Below the pieces are notes generated by a model. The model ran no database searches, was not told the DNA's origin, and saw only the letters and a list, made by a program, of their open reading frames with translations. Both the position numbers and the translations under genes were made by a program. From an uncultured Desulfobacter sp. (GTDB lineage Bacteria > Desulfobacterota > Desulfobacteria > Desulfobacterales > Desulfobacteraceae), in assembly GCA_963665095.1 (NCBI GenBank), contig OY762069.1, positions 6,368,001 through 6,432,000 of the forward strand: a stretch of DNA of 64,000 nt, in the 5' to 3' direction. This document shows, in pieces, positions 41,348-64,000 of this stretch (positions are counted from its first letter, which is position 1; every line of letters starts with the position of its first letter).

Positions 41348-41587
41348 CTTTCCCCCATTATCCATCGGTTAAACATATCTGTAACTTCTCAATTTGATGC
41401 AACGCTTTTCGATTATTTCTGTTTTTCATGTCTCAGGGACCTTCCCGCCTAGGAATTTAAATGGTCCAGTCAATTTATACAGAATTAACAAGTTAAGATT
41501 CAAACTGATTTATAATTAAGCCTCGCCTGTCAAAGAATTCAACCCCAACGGTAATAAATCAAGCGTTTATTCTACGGCTGTTTCCGC

Positions 41588-43426: not shown

Positions 43427-43750
43427 ATGAAAAAATTTATTATTGTAAGTATGGCAGTTGCGTTAGCTATTATGATTTCGGGGACATCATCTTTGGCTGA
43501 TTGCAAAAACACCCCCATCCAGGTTATCGAGCGTCCTGTCAGGATTGATTCCGGAGAGTACATGGGACGCGTAAGCTGCAGTATTCACCAGGGATATGTC
43601 AATACGGGCTTTGGTTATGAACTGGCGCTCATTAAACTGACAGCCGAAGCCCGGAAGATGGGTGCCGATGTCCTGGTTGTCCATAAATTTTCTGATATTA
43701 AAAGTGACGGATCCCTGAGTGGAGATATCTACAAAATGAATGGCAATTAA
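43427..43750 (+). CDS. Small secreted hypothetical protein
   Basis: Signal peptide ending SSLA; ALIKLTAEARKMGADVLV resembles the YbjQ/RcsF-type alpha-beta motif. Confidence 0.7.
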   Translation: MKKFIIVSMAVALAIMISGTSSLADCKNTPIQVIERPVRIDSGEYMGRVSCSIHQGYVNTGFGYELALIKLTAEARKMGADVLVVHKFSDIKSDGSLSGDIYKMNGN

Positions 43751-43824: not shown

Positions 43825-44145
43825 ATGCTGGATAGAAAATGGGTTGAAATCATTAATGCAAGGCTATCAAGCCCGCAAAATGAGAAGGTGATCAATGAGA
43901 TCGTTGATCATATAAAATCCGGCAGATGCCCGGAAACAGGAGCAAAGATAAATGCCGAACTTTATGCTAACCAGGATTTCGGGCTGGACTGGTCCATTCA
44001 TCTGATCTGGGACCGGGATGACGGGGTTCCCGGAAAAACTTCCCTGGGGATCAGCATCGCAAGTCTGTTCAGCAAGATGGGCCTGGTGAATCATTCTGTC
44101 TGGAAAACCATTCCAGAAAAAACAGAAGGAATGGGTAACAAATAA
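43825..44145 (+). CDS. Hypothetical protein
   Basis: 106-aa ORF co-oriented with 43427; KWVEII...DWSIHL...GLVNHSVW. Confidence 0.7.
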   Translation: MLDRKWVEIINARLSSPQNEKVINEIVDHIKSGRCPETGAKINAELYANQDFGLDWSIHLIWDRDDGVPGKTSLGISIASLFSKMGLVNHSVWKTIPEKTEGMGNK

Positions 44146-45068: not shown

Positions 45069-46118
45069 TTATTGGGACTTGGTCCGGGTCCAGGCCTGGT
45101 CGATGATCTGGTTGTCTTTACCCAGATCCTTGACAAAATGCAGGGTTTTCATGATTTCAGGCGTCGGCCAGATGCCGGGATTTTTTAAGTCTTCCGGTGT
45201 GATAAAGGGCTTGGCCGCATCATTGGGGGTGGCATACTGGTTATAGTTGGAAAGTGACGCGCCGACTTCGGGATCCAGTACCCAGTTGATCCACTTATGG
45301 GCCGCCTCAGCATTGGGCGCCTTGGCCGGAATGCACATGGAGTCGATCCAGATTTCAGAGCCTTCCCTGGGCACGATAAACCCGAATTTGTCCGGATCCT
45401 GGGAAACGCTTTGGATGGCATCCCCATTATATACGATGGCCGCATCCGCTACGCCGGAAACCACGTCGTTTTTGCCGCCCACACCGCCTTTAAATCCAAG
45501 ACAGGCCGCTCTTTTTTTGGTGGCGATGAGCAGGTCCGAGGCAGCTTTCAGCTCCTTGGGATTGGCCGAATTAAAATCATATCCCAGATACGCCAGGGCA
45601 ATGCCCAGCATCTCTCTGACCGAGTCAATCAGATAAAAGGGACCGACCTTTTTATCCGGGTCAAAAAGGATGGCCCAGGAAGCGACATCACTCTCTTTAA
45701 GCTTGGCCTTGTTGTACATCAGGCCCACGGTGCCCCACTGCCACCCCACGGAATATTTATTGCCCGGGTCAAAGGAGGCGCTCTGGAATTTATGCCCAAG
45801 ATTTTTCAGGTTTGGGATTTTGCTGTGATCCAGAGGCGTTAACAGACCGAGGTTGATCAGGCTGGGCATGATATAATCGGACGGAATAATCAGGTCATAC
45901 TGACCAAGGCCGCCGGCCTGAAGCTTGGCCATCATCTCTTCATTGGATTCATACATGTCCAGGTGAACCTTGATGCCGGTGGCAGCTTCAAAATCCTTGG
46001 GCATGTTCTCCTCGTCCATATATTCGGACCAGGTAAAAATTTTTAATTCCCCTGCTGACCATGCTGCGGCAGGGAGCAATAAAACCAGTGCCAGGACAAC
46101 TATCATCAACCGTTTCAT
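45069..46118 (-). CDS. potD: Spermidine/putrescine ABC substrate-binding protein
   Basis: LKIFTWSEY, YESNEEM, YDLIIPSDY, WQWGTVG, PREGSEIWIDS. Confidence 0.9.
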   Translation of the reverse strand: MKRLMIVVLALVLLLPAAAWSAGELKIFTWSEYMDEENMPKDFEAATGIKVHLDMYESNEEMMAKLQAGGLGQYDLIIPSDYIMPSLINLGLLTPLDHSKIPNLKNLGHKFQSASFDPGNKYSVGWQWGTVGLMYNKAKLKESDVASWAILFDPDKKVGPFYLIDSVREMLGIALAYLGYDFNSANPKELKAASDLLIATKKRAACLGFKGGVGGKNDVVSGVADAAIVYNGDAIQSVSQDPDKFGFIVPREGSEIWIDSMCIPAKAPNAEAAHKWINWVLDPEVGASLSNYNQYATPNDAAKPFITPEDLKNPGIWPTPEIMKTLHFVKDLGKDNQIIDQAWTRTKSQ

Positions 46119-46154
46119 CTCTCATCTCCTTTTTTTGTTCTTGTTTTCAAAAAA

Positions 46155-46958
46155 TTACTGTTTGATATTCACTTTCCGGGTAAACCGCTCCATGCTCACC
46201 ACCATGACGATGGTAACCAGGAGAACCAGGGTTGAAAGTGCATGAATCTGAGGGGTTACAGTCCTGCGGACCGCGGCAAAAATATACAGAGGCAGAGTGA
46301 CCGAATCCGGCCCTGCCGTGAAAAAGCTGATGACAAAATCATCCAGGGAGAGGGTAAAGGCCAGCATGGCGCCGGCCACGATGCCCGGCATCAGCAGGGG
46401 CAGAAGCACCTTTCTGAGCAGGTAGGGCGTATCGGCATACAGATCCCTTGCCGCCTCCTCCACATCTTTTCCGATGCTCACCAACCGGCTTCGCACCACC
46501 AGGGCCACAAACGCGGTCTGAAAGGTGATGTGGGCAATGATCATGTTGACCAGTCCCGGCTCGAAAACAGAGGCAGCCATGCGCAGGAACCCGAAAGCCA
46601 CCACCATTGCGGCGGCAAAGATAATATCCGGGATGATCACGGGAAGGTGGAGAATCATGTCCAGGACGGTGTTCATTCGCTTTGGCCAGGGAAACCGGTC
46701 CATGCCGATGGCCAGCACGGTTCCCAGCAGGGTTGAGATAATGGTGGAGACCACCGCCAGCACCAGAGTGTTCCAGGCGGCCTTTAATATCAGCTCATTG
46801 TGCAGAAGCTTAATATACCAGTCCAGGGTAAAGCCTTTCCAGACCAGGCCGTATTTGCTGTCGTTCACGCTGAAAAAGGCCACGGCCAGAAGCGGCAGAT
46901 ACAGAAAAAACATGGTGCTGATGGCCGCCACATTCACCAGGCGGGTAATGTTTTTCAT
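46155..46958 (-). CDS. potC: Spermidine/putrescine ABC permease
   Basis: FLYLP, GFTLDWY, EEAARDLYA, FTLSLDDFVISFF. Confidence 0.9.
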   Translation of the reverse strand: MKNITRLVNVAAISTMFFLYLPLLAVAFFSVNDSKYGLVWKGFTLDWYIKLLHNELILKAAWNTLVLAVVSTIISTLLGTVLAIGMDRFPWPKRMNTVLDMILHLPVIIPDIIFAAAMVVAFGFLRMAASVFEPGLVNMIIAHITFQTAFVALVVRSRLVSIGKDVEEAARDLYADTPYLLRKVLLPLLMPGIVAGAMLAFTLSLDDFVISFFTAGPDSVTLPLYIFAAVRRTVTPQIHALSTLVLLVTIVMVVSMERFTRKVNIKQ

Positions 46959-47860
46959 ATCAGGTCCACCCCCTTGCTTTTGCGTTTATACACATAGAGG
47001 CTGAGCATGGTAAGCACCATCAGGCCCATGCTGATGGCCGCGCCGAATGCCCAGTCCCGGCTGGCACCGAACTGCTGCTGGATCAGGTTACCCACCAGCA
47101 TATACTTGGCACCTCCCAGAAGATCCGGTACCACAAACATACCCATGGCAGGCACCAGGGTCAGGATCACCCCCACGGAGAGCCCGGGCAGGGTCTGGGG
47201 CAAAATGGCGTGCATGAAAATACGAAAGTTTGAGGCATACAGATCCTGGGCCGCCTCCACCAGGGTCCAGTCCAGGCGCTCCACACTGGAAAACAGGGGC
47301 AGGGCAACAAAGGGCAGAAACATGGAAATCATGCCCAGATAAACAGCAAAGGCGCTGGGATAAAGCGGCATCCCCGGTTGAATAAGTTTGAAAAAGGCGG
47401 CCAGTTTTGCAAAGGGCATTTCCGGTGCCAGAATGAGAAACCAGGCATAGGTCCGGATCACCATATTGGTCCAGAAAGGAATAATCACCACGGTGAGCCA
47501 TAAATACCGGGTACGTTCGGGTTTTCTGGCAATGTAGAAACACAAGGGGTAGGACAGAAGCACGGACAGGCCCGTGGTCACAATGGCCACCCAGACCGAA
47601 CGCAGCAAAATAAGCAGATAATCCGGGGTCCACCCGAATATTCCGAATCCCATGAGCCGCTTGTAATTTTCCAGGCTGAAATCCCAGACAAGCTGGCCAT
47701 AGGCCCCTCTGGCCGCAAAACTGACGGCAATTAAAATAAATCCGGGCAGTACCAGAAACAAGATGAGCCACAGCATTCCCGGAGATAAAAAGAAAAATCC
47801 GCGCTGGACAAGCTTTTTCTGGCTTAGCAGTTCGCCATACCAGACCATGAGCTTATTCAT
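46955..47860 (-). CDS. potB: Spermidine/putrescine ABC permease
   Basis: [37 protein letters not shown]; start at MNKLM. Confidence 0.9.
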
Positions 47861-48884
47861 GGAGGACCGCCATTTCTTTGGGTGCCAGATCCAGCCAGAC
47901 CTCATCCCCGATATGAATATCTTTGTAGGTACTGGTTCTGACCCTCACAGGCCCGGGGGTCAGCCAGATATCCAGATTGGTTCCCCGGTAAATGATCTCC
48001 GTCACCGTTGCCCGGATCGTATTTTTGGCAGGCTTGGTATCCTGGATCCGGATCCATTCCGGCCGGATGGCCACGGAGCCCTTCTCCCATGGGGGCGGGC
48101 TCTCCAGATCAAAAACACCTAAATCCGTATGGAATTTTCCCTCTTTGTAGACACCGTCAATGAGATTGGCGGCACCAAGGAATTCAGCAACAAATTTATT
48201 TTTAGGCGAGTCGTAGACCTGGTCCGGAGTGCCATACTGGATAATGGCGCCGTCACGCATGACCGCAATCCGGTCCGATACCACCAGGGCTTCATCCTGG
48301 TCATGGGTGACCAGAATAAAGGTGTGGCCCAGTTTCTGCTGGAGCCGTCGCAGCTCCACCTGAACCTGGGCCCGAAGTTTGGCATCCAGAGCCGACATGG
48401 GTTCGTCCAGCAGCAGCACCTTGGGCTCGTTCACCAAAGCCCGGGCCAGGGCCACGCGCTGGTTCTGACCGCCGGAGAGCTGATGGGGGTACCGGTTGTT
48501 CATCTGACCCAGCTCCAACATCTCAAGCACCTCGTCCACCCGCCGGGTCACCTCGGCATTGGCCACCTTGCGGGAGCGAAGCCCAAAGGCCACGTTCTCA
48601 AAGATGGTCAGGTGGGGAAACAGGGCATAGGACTGGAACACCGTATTGATCTGCCGCTTAATGGCCGGCAGCATGGTGATATCCTCCCCGTCCAGGACAA
48701 TGGTCCCTGAATCCTGAAGTTCAAGCCCTGCCATCATTCGCAGCAGGGTGGTTTTTCCGCAGCCGGAAGGGCCCAGCAGAGTAAAAAACTCGCCGGACCG
48801 GATTTCCAGGGAGATGTTGTTCACCGCCCTGACACTTCCGTATGACTTGTTAATATTTGTCAGATGCAGACCCGTCTCATTCAA
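47853..48884 (-). CDS. potA: Spermidine/putrescine ABC ATP-binding protein
   Basis: [44 protein letters not shown] start. Confidence 0.92.
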
Positions 48885-48911
48885 CTCGTAACACCTTCTT
48901 TCTAAATAAAA

Positions 48912-50195
48912 CTAATCCAGTTCAAAGCCGATTTTAAAGGAGTTGTCGTCGATCACTTCCTTATATTCGGAGTTCATTTCCATCATGGCAGGGGGGAAAC
49001 CATACCCCTCCAGCCGCTTGATAAACGGTTCCGGGGGGAAACACTCAGGCCCCAGAACGCCGGAGCCTTTCCACTGGCCTTTGGCCAGAAGCTCCATCAT
49101 GATCACCGGTCCCACAGCTGTCTGGGCCACAATGGCCTGGCTGCCGTAGTGTTTCATGCACTCTTCATTGTCCACCATCTGGTAGATATAGATACTGCGC
49201 TCTTTACCGTCTTTAATGCCTTTCACCCAGACACCGGCCGACAGCTGTCCCTTCATGTGGTCCCCTAATTTTGCAGGGTTGGGAGAGCAGACACCGACCA
49301 CATCTCTGGGAGAGACTTCAACACCTTTGACATTAACCTTTTCTGTACTGGTGAGACCTAATGCTTCAAGAATCCTTAATACTCTTCTCATGTCTTTGTC
49401 TACACCAAATTTAAAGGTCACCCGTTTTAATCCCTTGTCCTTGAAAAAACGGGGAAACATGATCACTTCCTCATGTTCAATGTTAACCACTTCCTGGTCT
49501 CCCACAGGTTCCGGAAACCTGAAGATTTCCGGCTCGGAAAAACACTCGGTCACATACCAGCCCCGGTCTTTTTCCCAGACCACCGGCGGGTTCAGGCACT
49601 CTTCAATGGTGGTCCAGATGGAAAAACCAAAGGCAATGTCCACCCCTTCGACCTCCATGTTGTCGGCATCCCGGACATTGAGTTCGTGAAGCTCGTCAAA
49701 GAGATGGTCACTGGCATATCTTGCGAATACATTAATCATGCCAGGCTCCACCCCGGAACCGATAATGGCCAGATTTCCCTTTTTCAGCCAGTCATCGTGT
49801 CTGGCGTATTGAAGATCGCCCAGGGCCTGACCCATGGTACCGAAGGGATCTTTTTTATCCCTTTCGGACAGACTCATGGCCATGTCCATATACTTGCAAT
49901 CCGTCTCCAGGGCCGCGTTGAAAATCGGCATGTTGAACACCGGGTCACAGGCGTTCATGATAAAGTCAATGCTGTGGGTTTTGGTAAGAGCGATGATCTG
50001 GTCTTTGTCACCGGCATCAACCCGTTCCACCTTAAGTCGGGAATCGCCCACTCTGTTCGCCACATTTTGCGCGCGCTCCAGATTGTAATCGGTGACAAGC
50101 ATGAACTCCAGCCATTCGGCGTTCGGATCATTCATAATCGCTATCGATACAATGGCTTCTCCCACGCCACCTGCTCCTACCAGTAATACTCTCAT
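48912..50195 (-). CDS. Saccharopine dehydrogenase family protein, carboxy(nor)spermidine dehydrogenase-like
   Basis: GAGGVG, GSGVEPG, FSIWTTIEEC, NIEHEEV (HEE motif), GVLGPECF; first gene of the pot operon. Confidence 0.85.
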   Translation of the reverse strand: MRVLLVGAGGVGEAIVSIAIMNDPNAEWLEFMLVTDYNLERAQNVANRVGDSRLKVERVDAGDKDQIIALTKTHSIDFIMNACDPVFNMPIFNAALETDCKYMDMAMSLSERDKKDPFGTMGQALGDLQYARHDDWLKKGNLAIIGSGVEPGMINVFARYASDHLFDELHELNVRDADNMEVEGVDIAFGFSIWTTIEECLNPPVVWEKDRGWYVTECFSEPEIFRFPEPVGDQEVVNIEHEEVIMFPRFFKDKGLKRVTFKFGVDKDMRRVLRILEALGLTSTEKVNVKGVEVSPRDVVGVCSPNPAKLGDHMKGQLSAGVWVKGIKDGKERSIYIYQMVDNEECMKHYGSQAIVAQTAVGPVIMMELLAKGQWKGSGVLGPECFPPEPFIKRLEGYGFPPAMMEMNSEYKEVIDDNSFKIGFELD

Positions 50196-50378
50196 AAATC
50201 CTCCATCAATTGGTTATTATAAAGACTGCGAACCCATTGCTATTTCTTTTTCTAAAGTTCACAGCAAAACTCAACGTATGCCGCACTGCGGCTTTCCGGG
50301 TGGACGCCCTTTAAGTCGGATCGGCGCCCCTATATTAATGATGACAGGCCCCCGTGCTTCCCGCCACAGTTCCGCCGG

Positions 50379-50864
50379 TCACAAGATTGCCGTACCCCAG
50401 GTGAAATCATGTTTTCCATACTGCATGATCAATGACGTCTGAATGCTTACAATTCCGTCAATTTTGTTGATTTTACCATATATCAACTCTTCAAGATCTT
50501 CAAAGCAGGGAACAATAAAGTCGGCATCCACATCCGTTCCCCCGGTGGTCAGCACCACGTACCACAGCTCCTTGATCTCCATCAGGGCGTCCATGATCTC
50601 GTCTTTTTTCTTGATATCAATATTAATCTTAAGGTTGCCCACCACCTGGAACCCAAGATCAAAGGGGTTGCTCACGGCAACGATTTTAACAATCTTATCA
50701 TCCATGAGTCGTTTGAGCCTTGTTCTGACCGTGGATTCAGCAATCCCCAGATGTTTGGCAATGGCAGTATTGGCAATCCGCCCATCCTCCTGAAGCAGTC
50801 GGATCAGTTTGGCGTCCAGGGCGTCTATCTTATGCCCTCGGCTATTAATTACATTTTCGTTCAT
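50379..50864 (-). CDS. Lrp/AsnC family regulator
   Basis: IDALDAKLIRLLQEDGR, ESTVRTRLKRL, TTGGTD. Confidence 0.92.
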   Translation of the reverse strand: MNENVINSRGHKIDALDAKLIRLLQEDGRIANTAIAKHLGIAESTVRTRLKRLMDDKIVKIVAVSNPFDLGFQVVGNLKINIDIKKKDEIMDALMEIKELWYVVLTTGGTDVDADFIVPCFEDLEELIYGKINKIDGIVSIQTSLIMQYGKHDFTWGTAIL

Positions 50865-51065
50865 AAAATTTTCGTTTTTTTTAAGGTAATATTCCTGTAA
50901 ATTCGCATATATTTAAAACGACATTTACACTTTCCACTGTTTTTGTCAAATAATTTATTGACAAAAAATTGGCACTCCTCTATTTTTAAGTCCAAAAACC
51001 GGACAATATTGTTATATCACACACATCAAAAGGAAAAATTTACAAGCTTGTAAGGGAGAGTAGAC

Positions 51066-52415
51066 ATGGCTGATTATAAGGACGCTGTTCTCAAAGAATC
51101 ATCACGCGTATTGGATTACATTCTTAAAGAGACATTAACCACGGAAGACAAGGATCAGATCACCGAGGATTCTGTCGGCAACTTTAACAACCATGTCAAT
51201 CCGGGGTGGCTTAAATATCGTAAATCCGTATCCACGGACGCCACCTTTGTGGAGTGGGCCGATTCCCAGGAGACCTTCTGCGATACCTACGGCAATGAAT
51301 TTATAGACTGCCTCGGAGGCTTCGGCGTATACACCGCCGGCCACAGAAATCCTGAAATCGTGGCGGCTGTCCAGGCACAGCTCGGCCGTTATGCCCTGCA
51401 CAGCCAGGAGCTGGTGGATCCTTTACGGGGGTATCTTGCCAAACTGATGTCCATGTGCACCCCGGGGGATCTGCAATACGCCTTTTTCTGCAACGGCGGG
51501 GCCGAAGCTGTGGAAATGTCCCTGAAGCTGGCACGACTGGCAACAGGAAAGCATTATTACATCTCCACGGTCAACGGATTTCACGGCAAATCCATGGGCG
51601 CGGTTTCCGCCACGGGTAAAGGCATGTACAGAAAACCCTATCTGCCCATTATCCAGGGGGTTCAGCATGTGGCCTTTGGCGATGCCAAAGCCGCCGAAAC
51701 CGCTATTAAAAACCTGAAAGCCGTAGGTGAAACCGTGGCCGGCATGATCGTGGAGCCCATCCAGGGCGAGGCCGGCATCATTCTGCCCCCCGAGGGGTAC
51801 CTGGCCGAACTTCGGAAAATCTGCGACAAGCACAAGGTGGTCCTGATCTTCGACGAAATCCAGACCGGCATGGGCCGCACCGGCACCCTGTGGGCCTGTG
51901 AGGACGAAGGGGTAACCCCGGACATCCTGATCTTCGGCAAAGCATTCGGCGGCGGGGTCATGCCCATCACCGGTATTATTGCCAAGCCCTGGCTGTGGAC
52001 CGAGCAGCTCCAGGAAAATCCCTGGATTCTGGGATCTCCCACCTTTGGCGGCAATCCCTTAGCCTGCGCAGCCGCAATTGCCGCCATCAATTACACCATC
52101 AAAAGCGACCTGCCCGGCCAGATCAAGGAGAAAGGCGAATACATGATGGAAAAACTTTTAAAGCTCAAGGAGAAGTACGATATCCTGGTTGACGTCAGGG
52201 GTAAAGGATTTCTCATCGGGCTGGAATACAAGACCCCGGAAATCGGCTGGGCTGTATCCAAGGGCCTTTTTAAGCGCAAAATCATGACCGGCGGCACCTT
52301 GAACAATGCCAAGGTCAACCGGATCGAACCTCCGGGAATTCTCTCCTATGAGACCATTGACATCATCATCCTGCGTCTGGATGAAACCCTGGCCGAGGTA
52401 ACCGGGAAATTATAA
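51066..52415 (+). CDS. patA: Putrescine aminotransferase (class III PLP)
   Basis: HVNPGWLKYRKSV, FIDCLGGFG, HSQELVDPLR, DEIQTGMGRTG, KAFGGGVMP; closely follows the E. coli YgjG/PatA pattern. Confidence 0.9.
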   Translation: MADYKDAVLKESSRVLDYILKETLTTEDKDQITEDSVGNFNNHVNPGWLKYRKSVSTDATFVEWADSQETFCDTYGNEFIDCLGGFGVYTAGHRNPEIVAAVQAQLGRYALHSQELVDPLRGYLAKLMSMCTPGDLQYAFFCNGGAEAVEMSLKLARLATGKHYYISTVNGFHGKSMGAVSATGKGMYRKPYLPIIQGVQHVAFGDAKAAETAIKNLKAVGETVAGMIVEPIQGEAGIILPPEGYLAELRKICDKHKVVLIFDEIQTGMGRTGTLWACEDEGVTPDILIFGKAFGGGVMPITGIIAKPWLWTEQLQENPWILGSPTFGGNPLACAAAIAAINYTIKSDLPGQIKEKGEYMMEKLLKLKEKYDILVDVRGKGFLIGLEYKTPEIGWAVSKGLFKRKIMTGGTLNNAKVNRIEPPGILSYETIDIIILRLDETLAEVTGKL

Positions 52416-52528
52416 CCTTCAGGCAGCATTTTTTGCTGTCAGCTGTCGGCCTTTGGCGAAGTTTTTTGCCCAAGGCCGATTGCTGTATAAAAAGGACTGC
52501 CGCAATCATATTTGATAAAGAGGCTTGC

Positions 52529-54253
52529 ATGAATATCATCAGGGTCAACATGACCAGCGCAACCATATCACAGGAAACCGTGGAGCCTGCCTTTGTGGGT
52601 ATGGGCGGACGGGGGCTGACCTCATACACCGTGGCCACCGAGGTCCCGCCGGAGTGTGATCCTTTAGGACCTGACAACAAACTGGTTTTTGCTCCGGGCT
52701 TTTTTTCAGGAACGCCCTTGATCAATACCTCCCGTTTTTCCATTGGCGCCAAAAGCCCTTTAACCATGGGTATCAAGGAGAGCAATGTGGGAGGCACGGT
52801 GGCTGTGGATATGGCCAGGGCCGGTATCAGCGGCGTCATCGTGGAAGGACGCCCTGAAAAAGGGGCTGTCTATATCTTAAAAATCGATGCCGGGGGCCGG
52901 GCATGTCTGGTGGATGCCGCCCCATATTGGGGAAAACGCACCTATGAACTGGTGACGGCCCTGAAAAAAGATTTCGGCGACAACATCAGTGTCACCTGCA
53001 TCGGTCCTGCCGGGGAGCAGCAGCTGGCAGCCGCATCTGTCCAGTCCACCGACCTGGACGGCCGTCCCTGCAGGGCGGCGGGCCGGGGCGGTATGGGGGC
53101 TGTCATGGGCGCCAAGGGGCTTAAGGCCCTGGTGGTGGAAAGGGCCAAAGGATCAAGCCCGATCCAGGACAAAAAAGCATTTAAAGCAGGGGCCAAAATT
53201 TTTGCCAAAGCAGTAATGGATGATGAGTTCACAGGGCACGTCCTGGCGGAACTGGGTTCTGCCGTACTGGTGGAACCCATTAATGCGGCAGGGGCCTTTC
53301 CCACCCGAAATGCCCGGCAGGGGCAGTTTGAACTGGCGGAAAAGATCAGCGGCGAAACCATGACTGAACTGCTTAAAGCCCGGGGAGGCAGGTATAACCA
53401 CAAGGGATGTGCCGGATGCATTATCAACTGCTCCAATGAGTTTGTGGATGAGTCAGGGAACTATGTGACCTCTTCACTGGAATATGAAACCATCTGGTCC
53501 ATGGGCGGCATGCTGGGCAACGCAGATCTGGATTCCATTGCCCGGCTTGATTTTCTCTGCGATGATATCGGCCTGGACACCATGAGTACCGGGGTGGCTG
53601 TGGCTGTGGCCATGGATGCAGGGTATCGGGATTTCGGGGATGCCGCCGCCGCCATCGACCTTGTGGAACAGGTCGCCAGGGGCACTAAGTTCGGTAAAAT
53701 CCTGGGGAACGGTCCTGTGGCCGTGGGTCAATTTTTCAACCATGACCGGGTGCCGGTGGTCAAGGGCCAGAGCATTGCCGCATACGATCCCAGGGCCATC
53801 CAGGGCATGGCCGTCACCTATGCCACCAGCCCCATGGGCGGAGACCATACCGCCGGATTTGTGGTGGAATCCAATCTCGAAGCCTTTGGCGGGACCATGG
53901 ACCGGTTTTCCGCAGACGGCCAGGTGGAAAACTCAAGGGATACCCAGATCCACATGGTGATGGTGGACACGGTGGGCATCTGTGATTTTGCCCAGTCCGG
54001 ATTCGGAGCCCCCAACGGCCTGGATAATGTCTGCGCCATGGTTGCGGCCAAATCCGGCAAGCCCTTTACCGCTGAAGAGTGGCGGAAAACCGGTGAAAAA
54101 ATAATTTACATGGAAATTGATTTTAACCGGAAGGCCGGATTGACCCGTGAAAGCGACCGGCTGCCCAAAATGTTTTACACAGAACCGCTGCCGCCCCACA
54201 ACACAGTGGTTGTAATTTCGGATGAACAGATGGATACTGCATTTACCCGTTAA
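52529..54253 (+). CDS. Aldehyde:ferredoxin oxidoreductase (AOR family, W/Mo-pterin)
   Basis: KSPLT.GIKESNVGG, GRGGMGAVMGAKGLKA, CAGCIINC, EYET, DDIGLD, DTVGIC, DRLP; start at MNIIRVN. Confidence 0.93.
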   Translation: MNIIRVNMTSATISQETVEPAFVGMGGRGLTSYTVATEVPPECDPLGPDNKLVFAPGFFSGTPLINTSRFSIGAKSPLTMGIKESNVGGTVAVDMARAGISGVIVEGRPEKGAVYILKIDAGGRACLVDAAPYWGKRTYELVTALKKDFGDNISVTCIGPAGEQQLAAASVQSTDLDGRPCRAAGRGGMGAVMGAKGLKALVVERAKGSSPIQDKKAFKAGAKIFAKAVMDDEFTGHVLAELGSAVLVEPINAAGAFPTRNARQGQFELAEKISGETMTELLKARGGRYNHKGCAGCIINCSNEFVDESGNYVTSSLEYETIWSMGGMLGNADLDSIARLDFLCDDIGLDTMSTGVAVAVAMDAGYRDFGDAAAAIDLVEQVARGTKFGKILGNGPVAVGQFFNHDRVPVVKGQSIAAYDPRAIQGMAVTYATSPMGGDHTAGFVVESNLEAFGGTMDRFSADGQVENSRDTQIHMVMVDTVGICDFAQSGFGAPNGLDNVCAMVAAKSGKPFTAEEWRKTGEKIIYMEIDFNRKAGLTRESDRLPKMFYTEPLPPHNTVVVISDEQMDTAFTR

Positions 54254-54418
54254 TCCCGGCATACGGGCAGAAAGGAAGCTTTATAAGAAAGTCTGTGTAA
54301 CCCACTCAGATCTTTCAACCTTTGTTGTGGGCTGAGCCGGGCAGATGAGATGTCAGGTCAGTCTGTGGCTGTAAAAACCTTGGCCGGGGAATGAAACGCA
54401 ACCCTTAAAAGGAAGAGA

Positions 54419-54841
54419 GTGATGAAACTGATGGTCGGCTATTATGGACATGACCCGCAGGGAGCGTTAGAAGCTGCGGTTATCCAGCAAGCCCGGGCTT
54501 TAGATGCACAGGTGTTTCTGGTCACCAGCATGGAGATTGGTGAATCCGTTCCCAAAGAGGCGTTTGACAGGGCGGAAAGAAATCTGGCCCAGGGAAAAAC
54601 TTTTTTTGAGAGCAAAGGCATTGCGTGTGAAACCGTTCTGCTGGAAACAGGGCTTTCACCGGGGGAGGACCTGATCCAGTTTGCCAGGGAAGAGGAGATG
54701 GATCAAATCATTATCGGGGTGAGACGCCGCTCCAAGCTGGGCAAGTTGATTTTCGGCTCCAACTCCCAGTATGTGATTATGAATGCCCCCTGTCCGGTTC
54801 ACTGCGTCAATGAGGAAATAGAGGCGGACCCTGAATCATGA
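54419..54841 (+). CDS. Universal stress protein
   Basis: IIIGVRRRSKLGKLIFGSNSQYVIMNAPCPV. Confidence 0.9.
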   Translation: MMKLMVGYYGHDPQGALEAAVIQQARALDAQVFLVTSMEIGESVPKEAFDRAERNLAQGKTFFESKGIACETVLLETGLSPGEDLIQFAREEEMDQIIIGVRRRSKLGKLIFGSNSQYVIMNAPCPVHCVNEEIEADPES

Positions 54842-54866
54842 AACCGGTCATGGGCCGGGAAACATA

Positions 54867-55106
54867 ATGAAGGTAACGGTGAAACTTTTCGGCACCCTGA
54901 GATCCAGGGTGCCGCAATATGATGTGACGGCCGGCATTGACCTTGTCTTTGAAAATCCGGTCAATGTCCGGCAGATCGTGTCCCATCTGGGCCTGCCGGA
55001 AAAACAGATTGGGATTGTCACCATCAATGAGATTATGGCCAGGGCCGGGGATCCGGTGCCGGATAACGCCCTGGTTCGGATCTTTCAACCCCTGACCGGC
55101 GGCTGA
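54867..55106 (+). CDS. MoaD/ThiS-family sulfur carrier
   Basis: MKVTVKLFGTL start; C-terminal PLTGG; 79 aa. Confidence 0.88.
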   Translation: MKVTVKLFGTLRSRVPQYDVTAGIDLVFENPVNVRQIVSHLGLPEKQIGIVTINEIMARAGDPVPDNALVRIFQPLTGG

Positions 55107-55119
55107 GGCGGCCCTTCCC

Positions 55120-55989
55120 TTAAAAGCTTTCAATCAATTTTTGCAAAACAGCCGACTTTATGTGCGAACTCCAGACCGCTTTGATATAAATTTCAGGCAA
55201 GGGCTCTTTAACCTTGATGTACTTGATCTTCTGGTCAAAGCTTCCCTTTAAGAATTCCGGAGCAAAGGTAATTCCCATGCCGGTGGCCACGAGCAGCAAA
55301 GAGGTGTTCTGGACATCGGATTCATGACTGATAATGGGCCGGCATCCGGCTGCGGTGAAACAATTCATAAAATCATCGTACAAAAGGGGCTGGGTATTCC
55401 TGGGATACATGATGATCTTTTCCCCGTCCAGGTCGCTTAAGGAGACCCGCTTTCTTTTTGAAAAGCGGTGGCTGTTATGAACCGCCAGTAAATACCCGGA
55501 TCGAAGGACCGTGCGGGTTTCCATCCCAAAAAGCCTTCGCTTGTATGGCTGCAGAAAACCGATGTCAATCTCTCCGGATTTAATCTTTTCAATCTGTTCG
55601 TTGGAACTTAATTCGTTTAAGGCGATCACGGTTTGGGGATACCGGTCTTTAAATTTTCCAAGCAAGGTGACCAGGAACCCATCCATGATCATTTCAAGAA
55701 AGCCGATATGCAGCCGTCCCATCATTCCGCTTTGCACCTGTCTGGCCTTGTGAATGGAGTGATTCAGGCTCTCCATCAGGATGCGGACATCCTGAAAGAA
55801 ACTTTGACCCGCATTGGTCAGTTCAACATGGCGCCTGCTCCGGTCAAAGAGTGCAACACCGAGTTCCTCTTCAAGGTCCTTGATCTGCATGCTTAAGGGC
55901 GGCTGGGAAATACCCAGCCGTTTCGCGGCCCTGCGGAAATGAAGTTCTTCTCCCAGCACCAGAAAGTATTTTAAATGTCGAAGTTCCAT
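55120..55989 (-). CDS. LysR family regulator
   Basis: MELRHLKYF...LHFRRAAKRLGISQPPLSMQIKDLEEELG. Confidence 0.95.
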   Translation of the reverse strand: MELRHLKYFLVLGEELHFRRAAKRLGISQPPLSMQIKDLEEELGVALFDRSRRHVELTNAGQSFFQDVRILMESLNHSIHKARQVQSGMMGRLHIGFLEMIMDGFLVTLLGKFKDRYPQTVIALNELSSNEQIEKIKSGEIDIGFLQPYKRRLFGMETRTVLRSGYLLAVHNSHRFSKRKRVSLSDLDGEKIIMYPRNTQPLLYDDFMNCFTAAGCRPIISHESDVQNTSLLLVATGMGITFAPEFLKGSFDQKIKYIKVKEPLPEIYIKAVWSSHIKSAVLQKLIESF

Positions 55990-56000
55990 TGCCCCTCTCT

Positions 56001-56017
56001 GATATATATTTTATATC
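56001..56017. promoter_or_regulatory. LysR recognition box (T-N11-A dyad)
   Basis: GATATA-tattt-TATATC in the AT-rich divergent spacer. Confidence 0.6.
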
Positions 56018-56126
56018 TGTTTATATAAAAAAATATATTAGACAAATCAATATTCTTCTTATATGAAATTATTATGGTAGTGGAGCGCAACAAAAAAACC
56101 GCGTTCCTGTAAAGCATGAACCGGGC

Positions 56127-57266
56127 ATGATGGAATCATACCCAATTTTGACAGGAAATGCCGTGAATCCTAAGAGACAAGAGATCGCTATTCGGGTTGA
56201 GGAAGCGATAAAAGTATATGGTGAGCGAAAAAATAAGGTTATCGCATTAAACCAGGTATCCCTTGACATATTCGAGAATGAATTTTTCACCCTTTTAGGG
56301 CCGTCAGGTTGCGGGAAAACCACCCTGCTCAGACTGATTGCAGGGTTTGAGCACCCCACAACCGGAAAAATTTTTCTCCACAGCGACGATATCACCGCGA
56401 ATCCTCCGTTCAAACGAATGATCAATACGGTTTTTCAAAATTATGCCCTGTTTCCGCATATGACCGTGGCCGAAAACATTGCCTTTGGCCTTGAAATGCA
56501 GGGAAAACCCGACAAAGAGATCAAACAGACCGTTGGCCGGATGCTGGAACTGGTTAAAATGGAAGTGTTGCAAAACCGGCAGGTCAGCCAGATCTCAGGG
56601 GGCCAGCAGCAGCGGGTGGCCCTGGCCCGGGCGCTGGCGCCAAACCCCAAAGTACTGCTGCTTGACGAACCCCTGTCCGCCCTTGACCAGAAGCTTCGAA
56701 AAGAGATGCAGAGCGAACTCAAGCGGCTCCAGGGCGAAACCGGGATTACCTTCATCTTTGTCACCCATGACCAGGAGGAAGCCCTGACCATGTCTGACAG
56801 AATTGCTGTCATGAATGAGGGACAGATCCTGCAGATCGGCACCCCCCACGAAATCTACAGACAGCCGTCAGAACGGTTCGTGGCCGATTTCATCGGGGAG
56901 ACCAATTTCTTAAATGCCGAGGTGCTTGGCTGCGAAAACGGAATGGCCAGGCTGATGCTTGGATCGGGCAAGCAGGTGGAAACAAGGTTCAGGGAAGATT
57001 TTACCCCTGAAAAAAACGTGACCATTGTTGTCCGGCCGGAGCATGCCATGCTGGTTGAAACTGAAGAAGAGAGCCTGCTGAAAGGGCACCTGGTCAATTC
57101 AGTCTACTTTGGAACAGACATGCACCTGCATGTTGAACTGGAGAGCAAAGAGCCCTTCATGCTTCGGATTCAGAATAACCCGGACGACAAGGCAACCTTC
57201 CAGGATGCCGGGAAAGATATTTTCATCGGCCTGCAGAAAAACGCAGTCCAGATTTTAAGGGACTAA
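56127..57266 (+). CDS. Polyamine-type ABC ATP-binding protein (PotA-like, copy 2)
   Basis: [38 protein letters not shown]; start uncertain. Confidence 0.92.
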   Translation: MMESYPILTGNAVNPKRQEIAIRVEEAIKVYGERKNKVIALNQVSLDIFENEFFTLLGPSGCGKTTLLRLIAGFEHPTTGKIFLHSDDITANPPFKRMINTVFQNYALFPHMTVAENIAFGLEMQGKPDKEIKQTVGRMLELVKMEVLQNRQVSQISGGQQQRVALARALAPNPKVLLLDEPLSALDQKLRKEMQSELKRLQGETGITFIFVTHDQEEALTMSDRIAVMNEGQILQIGTPHEIYRQPSERFVADFIGETNFLNAEVLGCENGMARLMLGSGKQVETRFREDFTPEKNVTIVVRPEHAMLVETEEESLLKGHLVNSVYFGTDMHLHVELESKEPFMLRIQNNPDDKATFQDAGKDIFIGLQKNAVQILRD

Positions 57267-57268
57267 CC

Positions 57269-58210
57269 ATGAACCAGGATAATAAAGAGATCGTATCTGA
57301 CGCTTCTGTATTAACCGAACAAAGAAAAAAACAGACGCGGCAACGCTGGCTCATGCTGTCACCGGCACTGATCCTGCTGCTGCTTGCGGCCTCAGGGCCG
57401 TTGATCATTATACTGGTCTATTCCTTTCTGATGCCGGCAGATTACAGCGGGGTTGTCTGGCACTTCTCCCTGGACGGCTGGCGGGGGGTCATCTGGCAGA
57501 AGGATATTTTTACAGGCAGTGTCAGCCTGTCCGACGCGCATCTGCAAATCTTTCTGCGTTCCGTGAAGCTGTCGGTTTTTACCACCTTTTTAACCCTTAT
57601 CGTTGGGTTTCCCACGGCCTACTTCATTGCCACCCGGCCCCCCAAGAAACGCTCCCTGTGGCTTTTCCTGATTACCATTCCTTTCTGGACCAACCTTTTG
57701 ATCCGGACCTTTGCCATCATGGAGGTGATTCGAAACCAGGGCATATTAAACTCGCTGCTCATCCATTTCCATATCATTGATACGCCCATTCAGATCCTGT
57801 ATACGGATTTCGCCATTCTGGCCGGGATGCTCTATGTATACCTGCCGCTGATGGTGCTGCCCATATATGCCTCCATGGAGCGGTTTGACTTTAATCTGGT
57901 TGAAGCCGGATATGATCTTTACGCCGGCCGCTGGCAGACCATGAGACATATTATCCTGCCCCTGGTCAGGCCGGGGATTGTCGCAGGATCCATTCTTGTG
58001 TTCATCCCCTCCCTGGGTGCCTATGTGACCCCGCGGATTCTGGGGGGCGGCAAGAGTATGATGCTGGGCAATCTGATCGACCTGCAGTTCGGACAGGGCA
58101 ATAACTGGCCCCTGGGCGCGGCATTGTCTTTTTTCCTGCTCCTTTTGACCATGCTGTTTTTGTTTCTTTACACCCGTTTTACGTCAAAATCAGTGAAGTC
58201 CTATGGGTAA
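57269..58210 (+). CDS. Polyamine-type ABC permease (PotB-like, copy 2)
   Basis: IPFWTNLLIRTFA, EAGYDLYA, NWPLGAA. Confidence 0.9.
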   Translation: MNQDNKEIVSDASVLTEQRKKQTRQRWLMLSPALILLLLAASGPLIIILVYSFLMPADYSGVVWHFSLDGWRGVIWQKDIFTGSVSLSDAHLQIFLRSVKLSVFTTFLTLIVGFPTAYFIATRPPKKRSLWLFLITIPFWTNLLIRTFAIMEVIRNQGILNSLLIHFHIIDTPIQILYTDFAILAGMLYVYLPLMVLPIYASMERFDFNLVEAGYDLYAGRWQTMRHIILPLVRPGIVAGSILVFIPSLGAYVTPRILGGGKSMMLGNLIDLQFGQGNNWPLGAALSFFLLLLTMLFLFLYTRFTSKSVKSYG

Positions 58211-59021
58211 GTTCAAAAAAAGCCCCCGCAACTTTGACATCCGCCACCAGCATGGGTTTACCCCCATTGCCATTATCTGTTTTATTTTTTTGTACACCCC
58301 GATTTTCACCATGATGGCCTACGCCTTTAACCAGGGCGATTCCATTGCCCTGTGGGAGGGGGTGTCATTGCGCTGGTTTGTTTCCGCCTGGGCCAATGTA
58401 CAGGTCAAGGAGAGTGCCATCCGCTCCCTTGTCATTGCCTCCCTTGCCTCGGGTATTTCAACCATGGCCGCAACCATGGCGGCACTGGCCACCACGAGAA
58501 CAGAAAAATTCAAGGGGCAGAGTCTGGTTTATGCCATTATTAACCAGCCCCTGATGGTTCCCGAAATTGTGACGGGTGTAGCGTTGCTGATCTTTTTTGC
58601 CCTGATCAAAAGCATCACTGGTTACACAGGTCTTGGCTACCTTGTGATTGCCCACACCGCCTTTTGCATTCCCTTTGCCTACCTGCCCATCCGCGCAAGG
58701 CTGGAAGGTATGGACCTAAGTCTTGAAACCGCGGCTGCAGACCTTTACGCCACGCCCTGGAAAACCTTTAAGCGGGTTACGCTGCCACTGCTTTTTCCCG
58801 GAATTATGGCCGGTGCCATGCTGGCCTTTGTGATTTCCCTGGATGATGTGGTCATCACCGAGCTTGTAAAGTCTGCTGGCCAGGATACGCTGCCCACCTA
58901 TATGCTTGGGCAGCTGCGCCGGGCCATCACCCCGGAGATCAATGCCATTTCAACGGCCCTTTTGGGAATCACCGTTGTTATATTAACCCTGTTTTACTTT
59001 TTGAGCCGGAAATCAAAATGA
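58203..59021 (+). CDS. Polyamine-type ABC permease (PotC-like, copy 2)
   Basis: FLYTP, PLMVPEIV, ETAAADLYA, SLDDVVIT. Confidence 0.9.
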   Translation: MGKFKKSPRNFDIRHQHGFTPIAIICFIFLYTPIFTMMAYAFNQGDSIALWEGVSLRWFVSAWANVQVKESAIRSLVIASLASGISTMAATMAALATTRTEKFKGQSLVYAIINQPLMVPEIVTGVALLIFFALIKSITGYTGLGYLVIAHTAFCIPFAYLPIRARLEGMDLSLETAAADLYATPWKTFKRVTLPLLFPGIMAGAMLAFVISLDDVVITELVKSAGQDTLPTYMLGQLRRAITPEINAISTALLGITVVILTLFYFLSRKSK

Positions 59022-59104
59022 ACCGGGGCCAAAAGAGAAAAAAAAAAGAACAGCGTTTGCCTGAACATTGAAACCGTTATTTACATTTTTTAAAGGAGTA
59101 TGAG

Positions 59105-60139: not shown

Positions 60140-60145
60140 CAGCCA

Positions 60146-60180
60146 TGGGCCCACCTGATCTCCCATGTCAGGTGGGCCCA
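60146..60180. other. Intercistronic hairpin after the binding-protein gene
   Basis: tgggcccacctga...tcaggtgggccca, 13-bp perfect stem without U-tract. Confidence 0.6.
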
Positions 60181-60204
60181 CAATAAATCAAGGAGAATAA
60201 CATT

Positions 60205-61514: not shown

Positions 61515-62972
61515 TCAGCTGATCCCGGCCATGCACATATATTTGATTTCCAGATAATCATCCAGGCCGTACTTGGAACCTTCCCGGCCGTTGCCGGACT
61601 CCTTGAATCCGCCAAAGGGGGCTACGGCATTGGAGATGATGCCGGAGTTGATGCCGATCAGACCATATTCAAGCTTTTCTCCCACCCGCCAGGTCCGGGC
61701 CATGTCCCGGGTGAAGAAATAGGCGGCAAGACCATATTCGGTATCGTTGGCTTTTTTAACCACCTCTTCTTCGGTGTCAAACTGAAAGACCGGGGCAAAG
61801 GGGCCGAAAATCTCCTCTCGGGCGATGAGCATTTCGTCGGTGGCGCCTGCCAGGACCGTAGGGGCAAAAAAGGTGCCGCCCAGGGCATGGCGTTTGCCAC
61901 CGGCAAGCACCTTTGCGCCCTTGTCCAGGGCATCGCTGATATGGCGCTCCACACTTTCAACAGCTTTCATGTCAATGAGCGGCCCCTGGACAACCCCATC
62001 CTCCATTCCGTTGCCCACCTTCAGGTTTGTCACGGCTGAGGTCAGTTTTTCACAGAACTTGTCATAAATGCCTGCCTGGACATAAAGACGGTTGGCACAG
62101 ACACAGGTCTGGCCGGAGTTGCGATATTTACAGGCAAGGGCTCCTTCAACGGCCGCATCCAGATCCGCATCATCAAACACGATAAAGGGAGCGTTGCCGC
62201 CCAGCTCCATGGAGACCCGCTTCATGGTTCCTGCGCAGTCCCGCATCAGTTTTTTGCCCACTTGAGTGGACCCGGTAAAGGTCAGTTTGCGGACAATGGG
62301 GTTGGCGGTCAGCTCCCCGCCAATGGCGGCAGATGACCCGGTTACCACATTAAAGACGCCGGCAGGAAGCCCCGCCTTAAGCCCCAATTTTGCAATGGCC
62401 AGGGCGGAAAAAGGGGTGGCTGTGGCAGGTTTAACCACCATGGTGCAACCAGCGGCAAGGGCTGCGCCTGCTTTGCGTGTGATCATGGCTGAGGGGAAAT
62501 TCCACGGGGTAATGGCCGCCACTACGCCCACGGGCTGCTTAATTACCACCAGGCGCTGGGAGGCTATGGTCTGGGGGATGACATCGCCGTAAATCCGTTT
62601 GGCCTCTTCGGCAAACCACTCGAAAAAGCTTGCGGCATAGGCGATTTCGCCCCGGGACTCTGCCATGGGCTTGCCCTGTTCTGCGGTCATGAGCAGGGCT
62701 AAATCTTCCTGGTTTGCCATGAGCAGGTCATTCCACTTTTTTAAAATGGCGGACCGCTCCCCTGCGGTTTTGCTGCGCCAGGCATCCAGGCTTTTGTCGG
62801 CCGCATCAATGGCCCGTTTTGTTTCGTCCGCCCCGCAGAAAGGGATGGTGCCCAGGACCTCTCCGGTGGCCGGGTTGGTCACATCCACGGTCTTTTTTGA
62901 ATCCGCCTCAATCCACTGGTTGTCAATAAAGCAAGCCTGGCAGAGCAGACTCGGGTCTTTTAATGCAATCAT
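61515..62972 (-). CDS. gabD: NAD(P)-dependent succinate-semialdehyde dehydrogenase
   Basis: ITPWNFPSAMITRK, FTGST, MELGGNAP, NSGQTCVC, EEIFGP, GREGSKYG. Confidence 0.92.
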   Translation of the reverse strand: MIALKDPSLLCQACFIDNQWIEADSKKTVDVTNPATGEVLGTIPFCGADETKRAIDAADKSLDAWRSKTAGERSAILKKWNDLLMANQEDLALLMTAEQGKPMAESRGEIAYAASFFEWFAEEAKRIYGDVIPQTIASQRLVVIKQPVGVVAAITPWNFPSAMITRKAGAALAAGCTMVVKPATATPFSALAIAKLGLKAGLPAGVFNVVTGSSAAIGGELTANPIVRKLTFTGSTQVGKKLMRDCAGTMKRVSMELGGNAPFIVFDDADLDAAVEGALACKYRNSGQTCVCANRLYVQAGIYDKFCEKLTSAVTNLKVGNGMEDGVVQGPLIDMKAVESVERHISDALDKGAKVLAGGKRHALGGTFFAPTVLAGATDEMLIAREEIFGPFAPVFQFDTEEEVVKKANDTEYGLAAYFFTRDMARTWRVGEKLEYGLIGINSGIISNAVAPFGGFKESGNGREGSKYGLDDYLEIKYMCMAGIS

Positions 62973-63010: not shown

Positions 63011-64000
63011 TTAAAGGGTTTCAAGGCCTTTTTCCATGATATCCAGCCCTTTTTGCAGTTGATCCGGTTCAATGACCAAAGGCGTCAGCACCCGGATCAC
63101 GTTCCCTAAAATCCCGCATACCAGAAGAATCAGGCCGTTGTCAAAACAGTATTGGGACAGCTGTTTGGCCTTGTCAGGGGCCACTGAGCCGTCTTCATTG
63201 ACAATGGTAATGCCGCGCATGGCGCCAAGCCCCCGCAGCTCGCCCACACAAGAAAAATTTTTTTTCCACGCCTCAAAGGTTTTCCCAAGTTTTTCGCCAA
63301 GGACCTTGGATTTTTCCAGAAGATTTTCCTCTTCAAAAATATCCAGAACCGCGTGGGCCGCTGCACAGGCCACAGGATTGGCACCGTAAGTGCCGCCTAA
63401 GCCGCCCGGGTGAACACTGTCCATGATCTCTTTTCTGCCCACCACAGCACTCATGGGCATGCCGGCGGCCATACTCTTGGCCACGGTCATCAGATCCGGT
63501 TCCACACCAAAATGTTCAATGGCAAACATGGTGCCTGTGCGGCCGATGCCGGACTGAATTTCATCGATCACCAGCACAATACCGTGTTTTTTGCAGAACT
63601 CCGCCACTTTGGGGAAAAAATCCGGGGGCGGTGCAATAAATCCGCCTTCCCCCTGGATGGGTTCAATGACTACGGCTGCGGTGTTTTCCGGATCAATACT
63701 GGTGATAAAGGACGCTTCAAACGCCTTGAAATCACCAAAAGGGGCCCGGTACACTTCCGGAGCCAAAGGTCCGAAACCGCATTTGTAGGGTTTAACCTTG
63801 GAGGTCATGGCCATGGTGAGGTAGGTCCGGCCATGGTAGGAGCCGTCACACACCACAATGCCCTGGCGTTTGGTGTAGTACCGGGCAATTTTTACGGCAT
63901 TTTCAACGGCCTCGGCACCGGAGTTCACAAAAAGGGCCTTTTTCTCAAAGTCGCCCGGGGCGATTTTGCACAGCCGGTCAGCCAGTGTTACCGCTGTTTC
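63011..64000 (-). CDS. gabT: 4-aminobutyrate aminotransferase (5' end beyond the window)
   Basis: NSGAEAVENAVKIAR, YHGRT...KVKPYK.GFGP, EPIQGEGGF, DEIQSG, AKSMAAGMP, GGLGGTYG. Confidence 0.9.
   Translation of the reverse strand, partial: ETAVTLADRLCKIAPGDFEKKALFVNSGAEAVENAVKIARYYTKRQGIVVCDGSYHGRTYLTMAMTSKVKPYKCGFGPLAPEVYRAPFGDFKAFEASFITSIDPENTAAVVIEPIQGEGGFIAPPPDFFPKVAEFCKKHGIVLVIDEIQSGIGRTGTMFAIEHFGVEPDLMTVAKSMAAGMPMSAVVGRKEIMDSVHPGGLGGTYGANPVACAAAHAVLDIFEEENLLEKSKVLGEKLGKTFEAWKKNFSCVGELRGLGAMRGITIVNEDGSVAPDKAKQLSQYCFDNGLILLVCGILGNVIRVLTPLVIEPDQLQKGLDIMEKGLETL

Follow-up and report, generated by a model that had tools for sequence, protein, structure and literature searches.

Putrescine is degraded in E. 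coli by an aminotransferase pathway that runs through PatA (YgjG), PatD (YdcW), GabT, and GabD, as set out in the available text of PMC9397018. Aldehydes are also oxidized by tungsten-containing oxidoreductases (WORs), among which Class I is defined by a large subunit only with a WorX gene nearby, and P. furiosus GAPOR provides the precedent of a substrate-specific WOR, of another clade and for another substrate, that replaces an NAD-dependent dehydrogenase (GAPDH) in catabolism (both from the accessible part of PMC13328260). We analyzed a stretch of 64,000 nucleotides (the window) from an uncultured Desulfobacter sp. (contig OY762069.1, positions 6,368,001 to 6,432,000; the host genome is 6.9 Mb in a single contig). 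Here a gene of the PatA family, patA1, is followed, at the place of PatD, by a gene for an aldehyde:ferredoxin oxidoreductase (AOR). The PatA-family first step and the predicted intermediates, 4-aminobutanal and 4-aminobutyrate (GABA), are common to this unit and the E. coli pathway; the predicted acceptor of the second step is ferredoxin rather than NAD. The patA-AOR unit is a conserved, AOR-linked variant of the PatA pathway. From gene order and residue conservation, we think it probable that the single-subunit AOR, encoded in the window together with a polyamine importer and an aminotransferase, acts on the omega-aminoaldehyde that PatA1 produces (most likely converting 4-aminobutanal to GABA), in parallel to PatD; that its substrate would be an aminoaldehyde, of whatever chain length, is considerably safer to say. 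The genes concerned are as follows (scores are compared with curated cut-offs; clade X is defined below).

45069..48884, minus strand: potA-potB-potC-potD, a polyamine-type ABC importer of four genes (PotA, TIGR01187 361.5 > 355.6)
48912..50195, minus strand: saccharopine-dehydrogenase-family NAD(P) oxidoreductase, 427 amino acids (family scan)
50379..50864, minus strand: lrp, Lrp/AsnC regulator (family scan)
51066..52415, plus strand: patA1, putrescine-aminotransferase family, 449 amino acids, with a variant substrate loop (NF008570 632 > 612)
52529..54253, plus strand: AOR/WOR large subunit, 574 amino acids, clade X (AFOR_N and AFOR_C above cut-off)
54419..54841, plus strand: usp, universal stress protein (family scan)
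54867..55106, plus strand: ThiS/MoaD-like (WorX-type) protein, 79 amino acids, ending in Gly-Gly (PF02597, 22 against a cut-off of 22.5 bits)
61515..62972, minus strand: gabD, succinate-semialdehyde dehydrogenase, last gene of a neighboring run (TIGR01780 736 > 646)
63011..64000, minus strand: gabT, running past the window end (complete at contig 6431011-6432249; TIGR00700 552 > 507)

The open reading frames (ORFs) and family scans bear out the two divergent units described in the initial annotation, lrp-dehydrogenase-potABCD leftward and patA-AOR-usp-moaD rightward. Polyamine models are the best matches for PotB, PotC, and PotD, all below their cut-offs. In relatives the Lrp protein is retained at the same position with 72-79% identity, the ThiS/MoaD-like gene comes after most clade-X AORs, and usp adjoins the AOR in only some cases. 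The annotation had also drawn gabT-gabD into the pathway. As it stated, gabD ends 6.4 kb past moaD, and no PatD or Puu gene lies inside the window from patA to gabD; both gab genes, however, are on the minus strand, face the AOR unit, and belong to a separate run. A lysR gene (minus strand), a second potABCD (plus), and a beta-lactamase-fold gene (plus) lie in between.

The AOR resembles the described Class I enzymes in architecture. Like P. furiosus AOR (1AOR), C. autoethanogenum AOR (9G7J), BmWOR, and CsWOR87 (PMC13328260, available part), it consists of one large subunit accompanied by a ThiS-like gene of the WorX type, and it shares their fold, four cluster cysteines, and second-shell residues, but it is only about 30-33% identical to them and is embedded in a catabolic gene unit, whereas their role is detoxification. 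Its two domains score 212 and 265 bits (AFOR_N and AFOR_C), and homologue alignments beginning at residue 1 back the ATG start. A structure model built from a 27-sequence alignment (predicted local distance difference test 92) matches 1AOR with a template-modeling score of 0.92, confirming the fold. Aligned to P. furiosus AOR, the [4Fe-4S] ligands are C294, C297, C301, and C485, and the second shell reads S244/E320/Y419/H440 against Thr243/Glu313/Tyr427/His448; these residues are defined in PMC12096430, in whose accessible text the Thr-to-Ser change occurs in an active AOR. Two substrate-side positions also differ, Tyr452 being Phe in the window AOR (Trp in 92% of clade X) and Leu495 being Asp. 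With no gene for a polyferredoxin, small Fe-S, or flavin subunit in the unit and a WorX-type gene nearby, the enzyme fits Class I, and by analogy with that class ferredoxin is its predicted electron acceptor. We infer that the metal is tungsten. The genome holds five AOR-family genes and carries both WtpA (tungstate-binding, NF003196 444 > 355) and ModA. Assignment of the AOR to the YdhV type was rejected (NF007354, which we take to be the YdhV model, 110 < 868). A search with PF12849 for a TupA-type tungstate binder returned matches that on inspection were only phosphate-binding-like operons, and in one phosphate-ABC-like operon (L356, contig 1687039-1689158; L-numbers denote individual extracted loci) the binding-protein gene is split by a stop.

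To see how this gene pair is distributed, we scanned GTDB for patA1, which gave 61 loci, and searched for the AOR in 160 genomes of the family, 200 genomes of the order, and metagenomes. The closest named patA1 relatives are 87-88% identical and are mostly recorded as Desulfobacterales or Ca. Desulfobacula. An AOR-family gene often lies near patA in the close relatives, in records from Desulfobacterales, SAR324, and Bacillota. The window AOR falls in a clade that we call X (identity of at least about 62%, 82 rows, SH support 97; FastTree, 131 rows left when 167 were merged at 95%). In GTDB genomes, patA, pot, or agu genes lie within 7 kb on either side of 19 of 33 clade-X loci, with patA itself at 11; the same holds for only 1 of 21 loci of related AORs (52-58% identity) and 1 of 31 loci of AOR2-type paralogues. 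The 33 are all listed clade-X matches outside the genome of the window (G000), the 21 exclude a single mid-range match (L169), the 31 were hand-picked with weight on genomes also holding clade X, and the mean flank was 11-12 kb in all three sets; neighbors were labeled by BLAST to this genome's own proteins, a procedure that misses unrelated amine genes. Metagenomic clade-X loci of at least 7 kb (43 of 80) have polyamine genes at 23 and patA at 14. These neighborhoods tie clade X to polyamine genes, and judged from them the pairing of patA with the AOR is more than chance. Other clade-X neighborhoods hold MttB-family methyltransferases, pyridoxal-phosphate-dependent decarboxylases, ABC transporters, or nothing telling. 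As a separate observation, a dimethylamine-methyltransferase-family gene lies directly 3' of a patA1-type gene in L106 (7789-8853), ORFs of similar size follow patA in L107-L109, and MttB-family genes occur near other patA1 and clade-X loci.

Many of the patA matches proved to lie in open frames of more than 1000 codons, and all 30 such stop-free frames are in-frame PatA-WOR fusions of about 1055 amino acids, spread over 30 genomes within this family and order (L334-L353, L365-L370; for example, L344:7019-10174). A gene for a 181-residue Fe-S protein (polyferredoxin) usually lies 3' of the fusion. The WOR part of these fusions, clade Y, shares about 30% identity with the window AOR and groups with the SAR324 and most of the Bacillota patA-adjacent WORs; a tree uniting X and Y in one clade is rejected (approximately unbiased test, p 5e-33; IQ-TREE, 23 rows). 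A third WOR clade, Z, lies beside gabT or within the same operons (L034:15575-17500, L113, L232, L260, L265, L335, L349, L350, and L352) and is a candidate succinic-semialdehyde:ferredoxin oxidoreductase replacing GabD. The genome of the window has no clade-Z gene (best match 30%). In L344 and L346 the clade-Z copy looks truncated or split, and so does a WOR in L369.

We then asked whether these enzymes take the place of PatD in other genomes. In the family sample, patA (E <= 1e-100) is present in 30 of 160 other genomes; 10 of these have only a PatD above cut-off, 20 have clade X and/or the fusion, and none has both. In the order sample patA is present in 30 of 200 genomes, 27 with clade X and/or the fusion (one of them also with PatD), and the other three have PatD only, PatD with an unfused clade-Y WOR, and, in an 85% complete genome, neither. 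Together, 47 of the 60 patA genomes hold clade X and/or a fusion and 1 of the 47 also has PatD; these counts are descriptive rather than a test and refer to the matches listed per genome, the genomes being kin and many of them incomplete. Among order genomes patA occurs in 19 of 21 with clade X versus 11 of 179 without it. A positional swap is also visible: L110 reads patA2-AOR-TRAP-aguA, where G000, L111, L113, and L114 read patA2-patD-aguA-aguB. The L034 locus combines aguA, pot, patA, AOR, moaD, aguB, and gabT, with a second WOR as well, and NF010000 matched nothing in that genome at E <= 1e-100. The co-occurrence of clade X and PatD makes G000 unusual, and neither patA1 nor clade X was found in the 24 same-genus genomes searched.

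The PatD of this genome came to light when a BLAST of the window proteins against all genome ORFs found a second patA and an aldehyde dehydrogenase (ALDH) beyond the window edge, both in the run that ends with gabT-gabD.

contig 6434565-6435983, minus strand: patD, aminobutyraldehyde dehydrogenase, 2.6 kb past the window (NF010000 666 > 615)
contig 6436008-6437360, minus strand: patA2 (NF008570 646 > 612)

The run comprises tetR, an amidohydrolase gene, patA2, patD, aguA, aguB, gabT, and gabD on the minus strand, with gaps of 16-156 nt; patD begins 24 nt after patA2, whose product is 48% identical to PatA1. Among nine ALDH matches in the genome at E <= 1e-60, PatD is the sole one to pass NF010000. 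Its closest PDB entries are 1WNB (E 1e-139), presumably E. coli YdcW/PatD, and 6C43; it stays below the stricter TIGR03374 (518 < 909). AguB passes TIGR03381 (452 > 410), and the aguA-like gene is under its cut-off. The run corresponds to the E. coli PatA-PatD-GabT-GabD set plus AguA/AguB, and on this gene content gabT-gabD is the end of a conventional agmatine-putrescine-GABA-succinate gene run. The proposal of the initial annotation that the AOR acts instead of an NAD-dependent aldehyde dehydrogenase is therefore not supported for this organism: an induced PatD elsewhere in the genome was to count against it, and at gene level a PatD is present, on the same strand and in the same run as gabT-gabD. 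Nor is oxygen independence new. Transaminases and NAD(P)-dependent dehydrogenases require no O2, and the PatA/PatD route likewise needs none. Anaerobic growth on putrescine was already known, as in Anaerovorax odorimutans, which grows on it under strictly anaerobic conditions (PMC11362086, accessible part). Two observations on the surroundings of the run may be recorded here. In L111, L113, and L114, from the same genus, potABCD sits between tetR and the amidohydrolase gene, where this genome (L001:6505-8716) has a 67-nt gap and no potABCD. About 30 kb past the window (L002:11468-15560) are genes for an omega-aminotransferase, a CoA-acylating methylmalonate-semialdehyde dehydrogenase (MMSDH; TIGR01722 525 > 448), and an Lrp 43% like that of the window, possibly a beta-alanine branch.

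We compared the residue directly after the fourth cluster Cys, position 486 in the window AOR. Of 93 clade-X rows, 91 have Asp here, and the two exceptions (61-62% identical), which carry Leu, have no polyamine neighbors. It is Asp in all 29 clade-Y rows as well, Arg (18) or Lys (1) in the 19 of clade Z, and Asp in none of 22 rows of the mid-clade or 41 of the AOR2 type; in broad-range AORs of solved structure it is Leu, Val, or Ile. Gln occurs in two patA-adjacent WORs from a fourth lineage, and Asp also in an unrelated, poorly aligned WOR (L098). The corresponding pair in P. furiosus FOR, whose structure was solved with glutarate, is Cys491-Arg492 (counted from the alignment). We take Arg492 to contact the glutarate, a contact that we sought in the literature and did not find confirmed. 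This FOR (1B25/1B4N) is a proposed glutaric semialdehyde oxidizer (PMC12096430, available text), and so a WOR proposed for an omega-charged aldehyde that, like the window AOR, has a charged residue right after the fourth Cys: Arg, as in clade Z, rather than Asp. The substrate-holding residues of A. aromaticum AOR, Tyr468, Phe511, and Phe514 (PMC10413684, available text), align to F444, F487, and S490 of the window AOR, and Val510 aligns to D486, which by this alignment adjoins the equivalent of Phe511. The residue pattern fits, we infer, cationic aminoaldehydes for clades X and Y, succinic semialdehyde for Z, and generic aldehydes for the related AORs.

A number of observations weigh against the AOR acting on 4-aminobutanal from PatA1. 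With PatD present, the AOR is not needed for putrescine in this genome. PatA1, which matches 4UOX (E 6e-137), falls below TIGR03372 (490 < 659; PatA2 does too, at 489), and its substrate loop is NPWILGSPT against NPFLHTTT in 4UOX (E. coli PatA); this variant occurs in 31 of 38 close PatA1 relatives, and patA2 and most fusions carry NPF(M/I)HTT. The gap between patA and AOR contains a hairpin.

52422..52502, plus strand: hairpin of 81 nt (-43 kcal/mol, z -5.4, 0 of 200 shuffles)

It has no U tail, occurs once in the genome, may be a terminator, a processing site, or a stabilizer, and could uncouple patA from the AOR here; in L034, L041, and L183 the entire gap is about 65-80 nt (read from the sequence). 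Elsewhere, L063 and L092 keep pot, the dehydrogenase gene, lrp, and patA with neither AOR nor ALDH beside them, and L095 has moaD-usp without the window AOR. Within 7 kb, a polyamine gene is missing at 14 of the 33 clade-X loci and patA at 22 of them. The distant patA1 relatives (57-63%) often adjoin an ALDH about 42% like PatD and under the NF010000 cut-off, so that this cut-off can miss functional PatD equivalents. Clade X and the PatA-WOR fusion occur together in nine genomes; therefore, clade X need not be the 4-aminobutanal enzyme, and since in L260, L274, and L334 the AOR comes after gabT-type genes, 4-aminobutanal is perhaps not its only or main substrate.

One rival reading has the same chemistry on another substrate, spermidine or a C3/C5 diamine, in which case the dehydrogenase would cleave spermidine, the AOR would work mainly on 3-aminopropanal or 5-aminopentanal, and putrescine would be left to PatA2/PatD. 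The two patA paralogues with differing loops in one genome and the nine dual genomes speak for this, as do a window dehydrogenase that is not the biosynthetic enzyme (see below), clade-X genes directly after saccharopine-dehydrogenase-like genes in L224 and L270, and the aminotransferase-MMSDH-Lrp genes 30 kb past the window. We nevertheless consider it unlikely: the closest relatives place aguA and aguB (L034, L041) and gabT (L034) around patA1-AOR, and of the four family genomes that carry patA1, two yielded a single patA match, which together indicate agmatine-derived putrescine. Less likely again, to the point of being doubtful, is an ordinary broad-range aldehyde detoxifier traveling with amine genes. 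Characterized Class I WORs are mostly such enzymes (PMC13328260, available part), and the 14 loci without polyamine genes would suit one, but the AOR2-type paralogues, many from the same genomes, lack these neighbors (1 of 31), and at the position of the clade-X Asp the broad-range AORs of known structure carry Leu, Val, or Ile.

Two further possibilities were rejected. Oxidation of succinic semialdehyde, the AOR standing in for GabD and not for PatD, is very improbable; the three loci with the AOR after gabT-type genes point that way, but a separate clade with Arg or Lys, Z, already sits beside gabT, the clade-X Asp would repel a carboxylate, and this genome has GabD and no clade-Z gene. That the organism lacks PatD and depends on the AOR as its sole route for putrescine, as the absence of PatD inside the window might suggest, is the remotest of all and is contradicted by the PatD-family gene above its curated cut-off, 24 nt after patA2.

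If the AOR does oxidize the omega-aminoaldehyde of PatA1, the steps would be these: PotABCD would import a polyamine, PatA1 would transaminate putrescine or a related diamine, and the AOR would oxidize the resulting aldehyde, Asp486 pairing with the distal ammonium. With tungsten as the metal, electrons would pass to ferredoxin and GABA to GabT/GabD of the neighboring run, and Lrp would control the unit from divergent promoters. What such a route would gain over PatD is not independence from oxygen but electrons of low potential, drawn from the aldehyde/acid couple. With more hesitation, and as something just short of an even chance, we suggest that anaerobes break down polyamines with tungsten enzymes dedicated to the task and recruited on at least three occasions: two unrelated Asp clades, one free and one fused to PatA, on the aminoaldehyde and an Arg clade on succinic semialdehyde, with the residue after the fourth Cys as a charge code and both oxidations yielding reduced ferredoxin.

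According to the available part of PMC13328260, a physiological role has been defined for only 5 of the 92 WOR clades. If true, an aminoaldehyde-specific AOR would add a catabolic role to the family, explain polyamine use by anaerobes without PatD, and offer a route to low-potential electrons. Fusion to PatA would let a cyclizing aldehyde be channeled. The Asp/Arg/Leu pattern would be a rule for predicting substrates across the largely uncharacterized WORs, testable by one mutation, and a genome with both PatD and the AOR would allow the two routes to be compared in one cell. We found the idea of a polyamine-linked AOR in no paper, in a literature search that went without most subscription journals. 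The accessible main text of PMC13328260 contains no mention of putrescine, polyamine, aminotransferase, spermidine, or aminobutyr, and the accessible portions of three of its supplements contain neither putrescine nor aminotransferase; the available parts of PMC12096430 do not mention putrescine or amine, and those of PMC9397018 do not mention ferredoxin.

The dehydrogenase gene next to potABCD shares the two-domain family signature of carboxyspermidine dehydrogenases (matches to 4INA, 4RL6, and 8DEB). A role as the biosynthetic carboxy(nor)spermidine dehydrogenase was rejected: in contrast to that family, the protein is far below the curated cut-off (NF043000 176 < 800) and its gene has no adjacent nspC, while a separate nspC-adjacent homologue, 25% identical, lies elsewhere in the genome. 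The window enzyme is possibly a polyamine-cleaving entry enzyme, a weak suggestion. We searched 300 further genomes from the phylum and obtained no match to it at E <= 1e-100; its plasmid relatives (49-54%) are actinobacterial, and no pathway was evident in the 3 of 19 contexts examined. We know of no function for this subfamily. Around patA1 relatives in L053, L060, L099-L101, and L103 there are one to four saccharopine-dehydrogenase-family paralogues, mostly 24-31% identical to that of this genome.

Between lrp and patA1 lies a palindrome that likely represents back-to-back -35 boxes of divergent promoters.

50943..50964, no strand: palindrome TTGTCAA-N8-TTGACAA, kept in 5 of 7 aligned intergenic regions

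A promoter scan gave 21 sites versus 16 expected and was uninformative except for the site at 50958, which is conserved in relatives; a weak site at 52512-52539 was discarded for its overlap with the start codon of the AOR gene. In GC and GC3 the cluster genes fall among the values of neighboring genes, with no compositional sign of recent transfer.

Other features of the window were noted in passing. A low-GC stretch (43-45%) holds a gene with a ZU5-like domain (40181-41365) and small ORFs without a confident Pfam family (43427-43750 and 43825-44145). The AOR-usp gap contains a dispersed repeat (54275-54377) with nine further genome matches at E <= 0.006. At 55120-61401, the LysR gene is divergent from the second potABCD, whose PotD is only 29% like that of the first, and from the beta-lactamase-fold hydrolase gene; a hydrolase distantly similar to this one comes after patA1 in L099 and L213.

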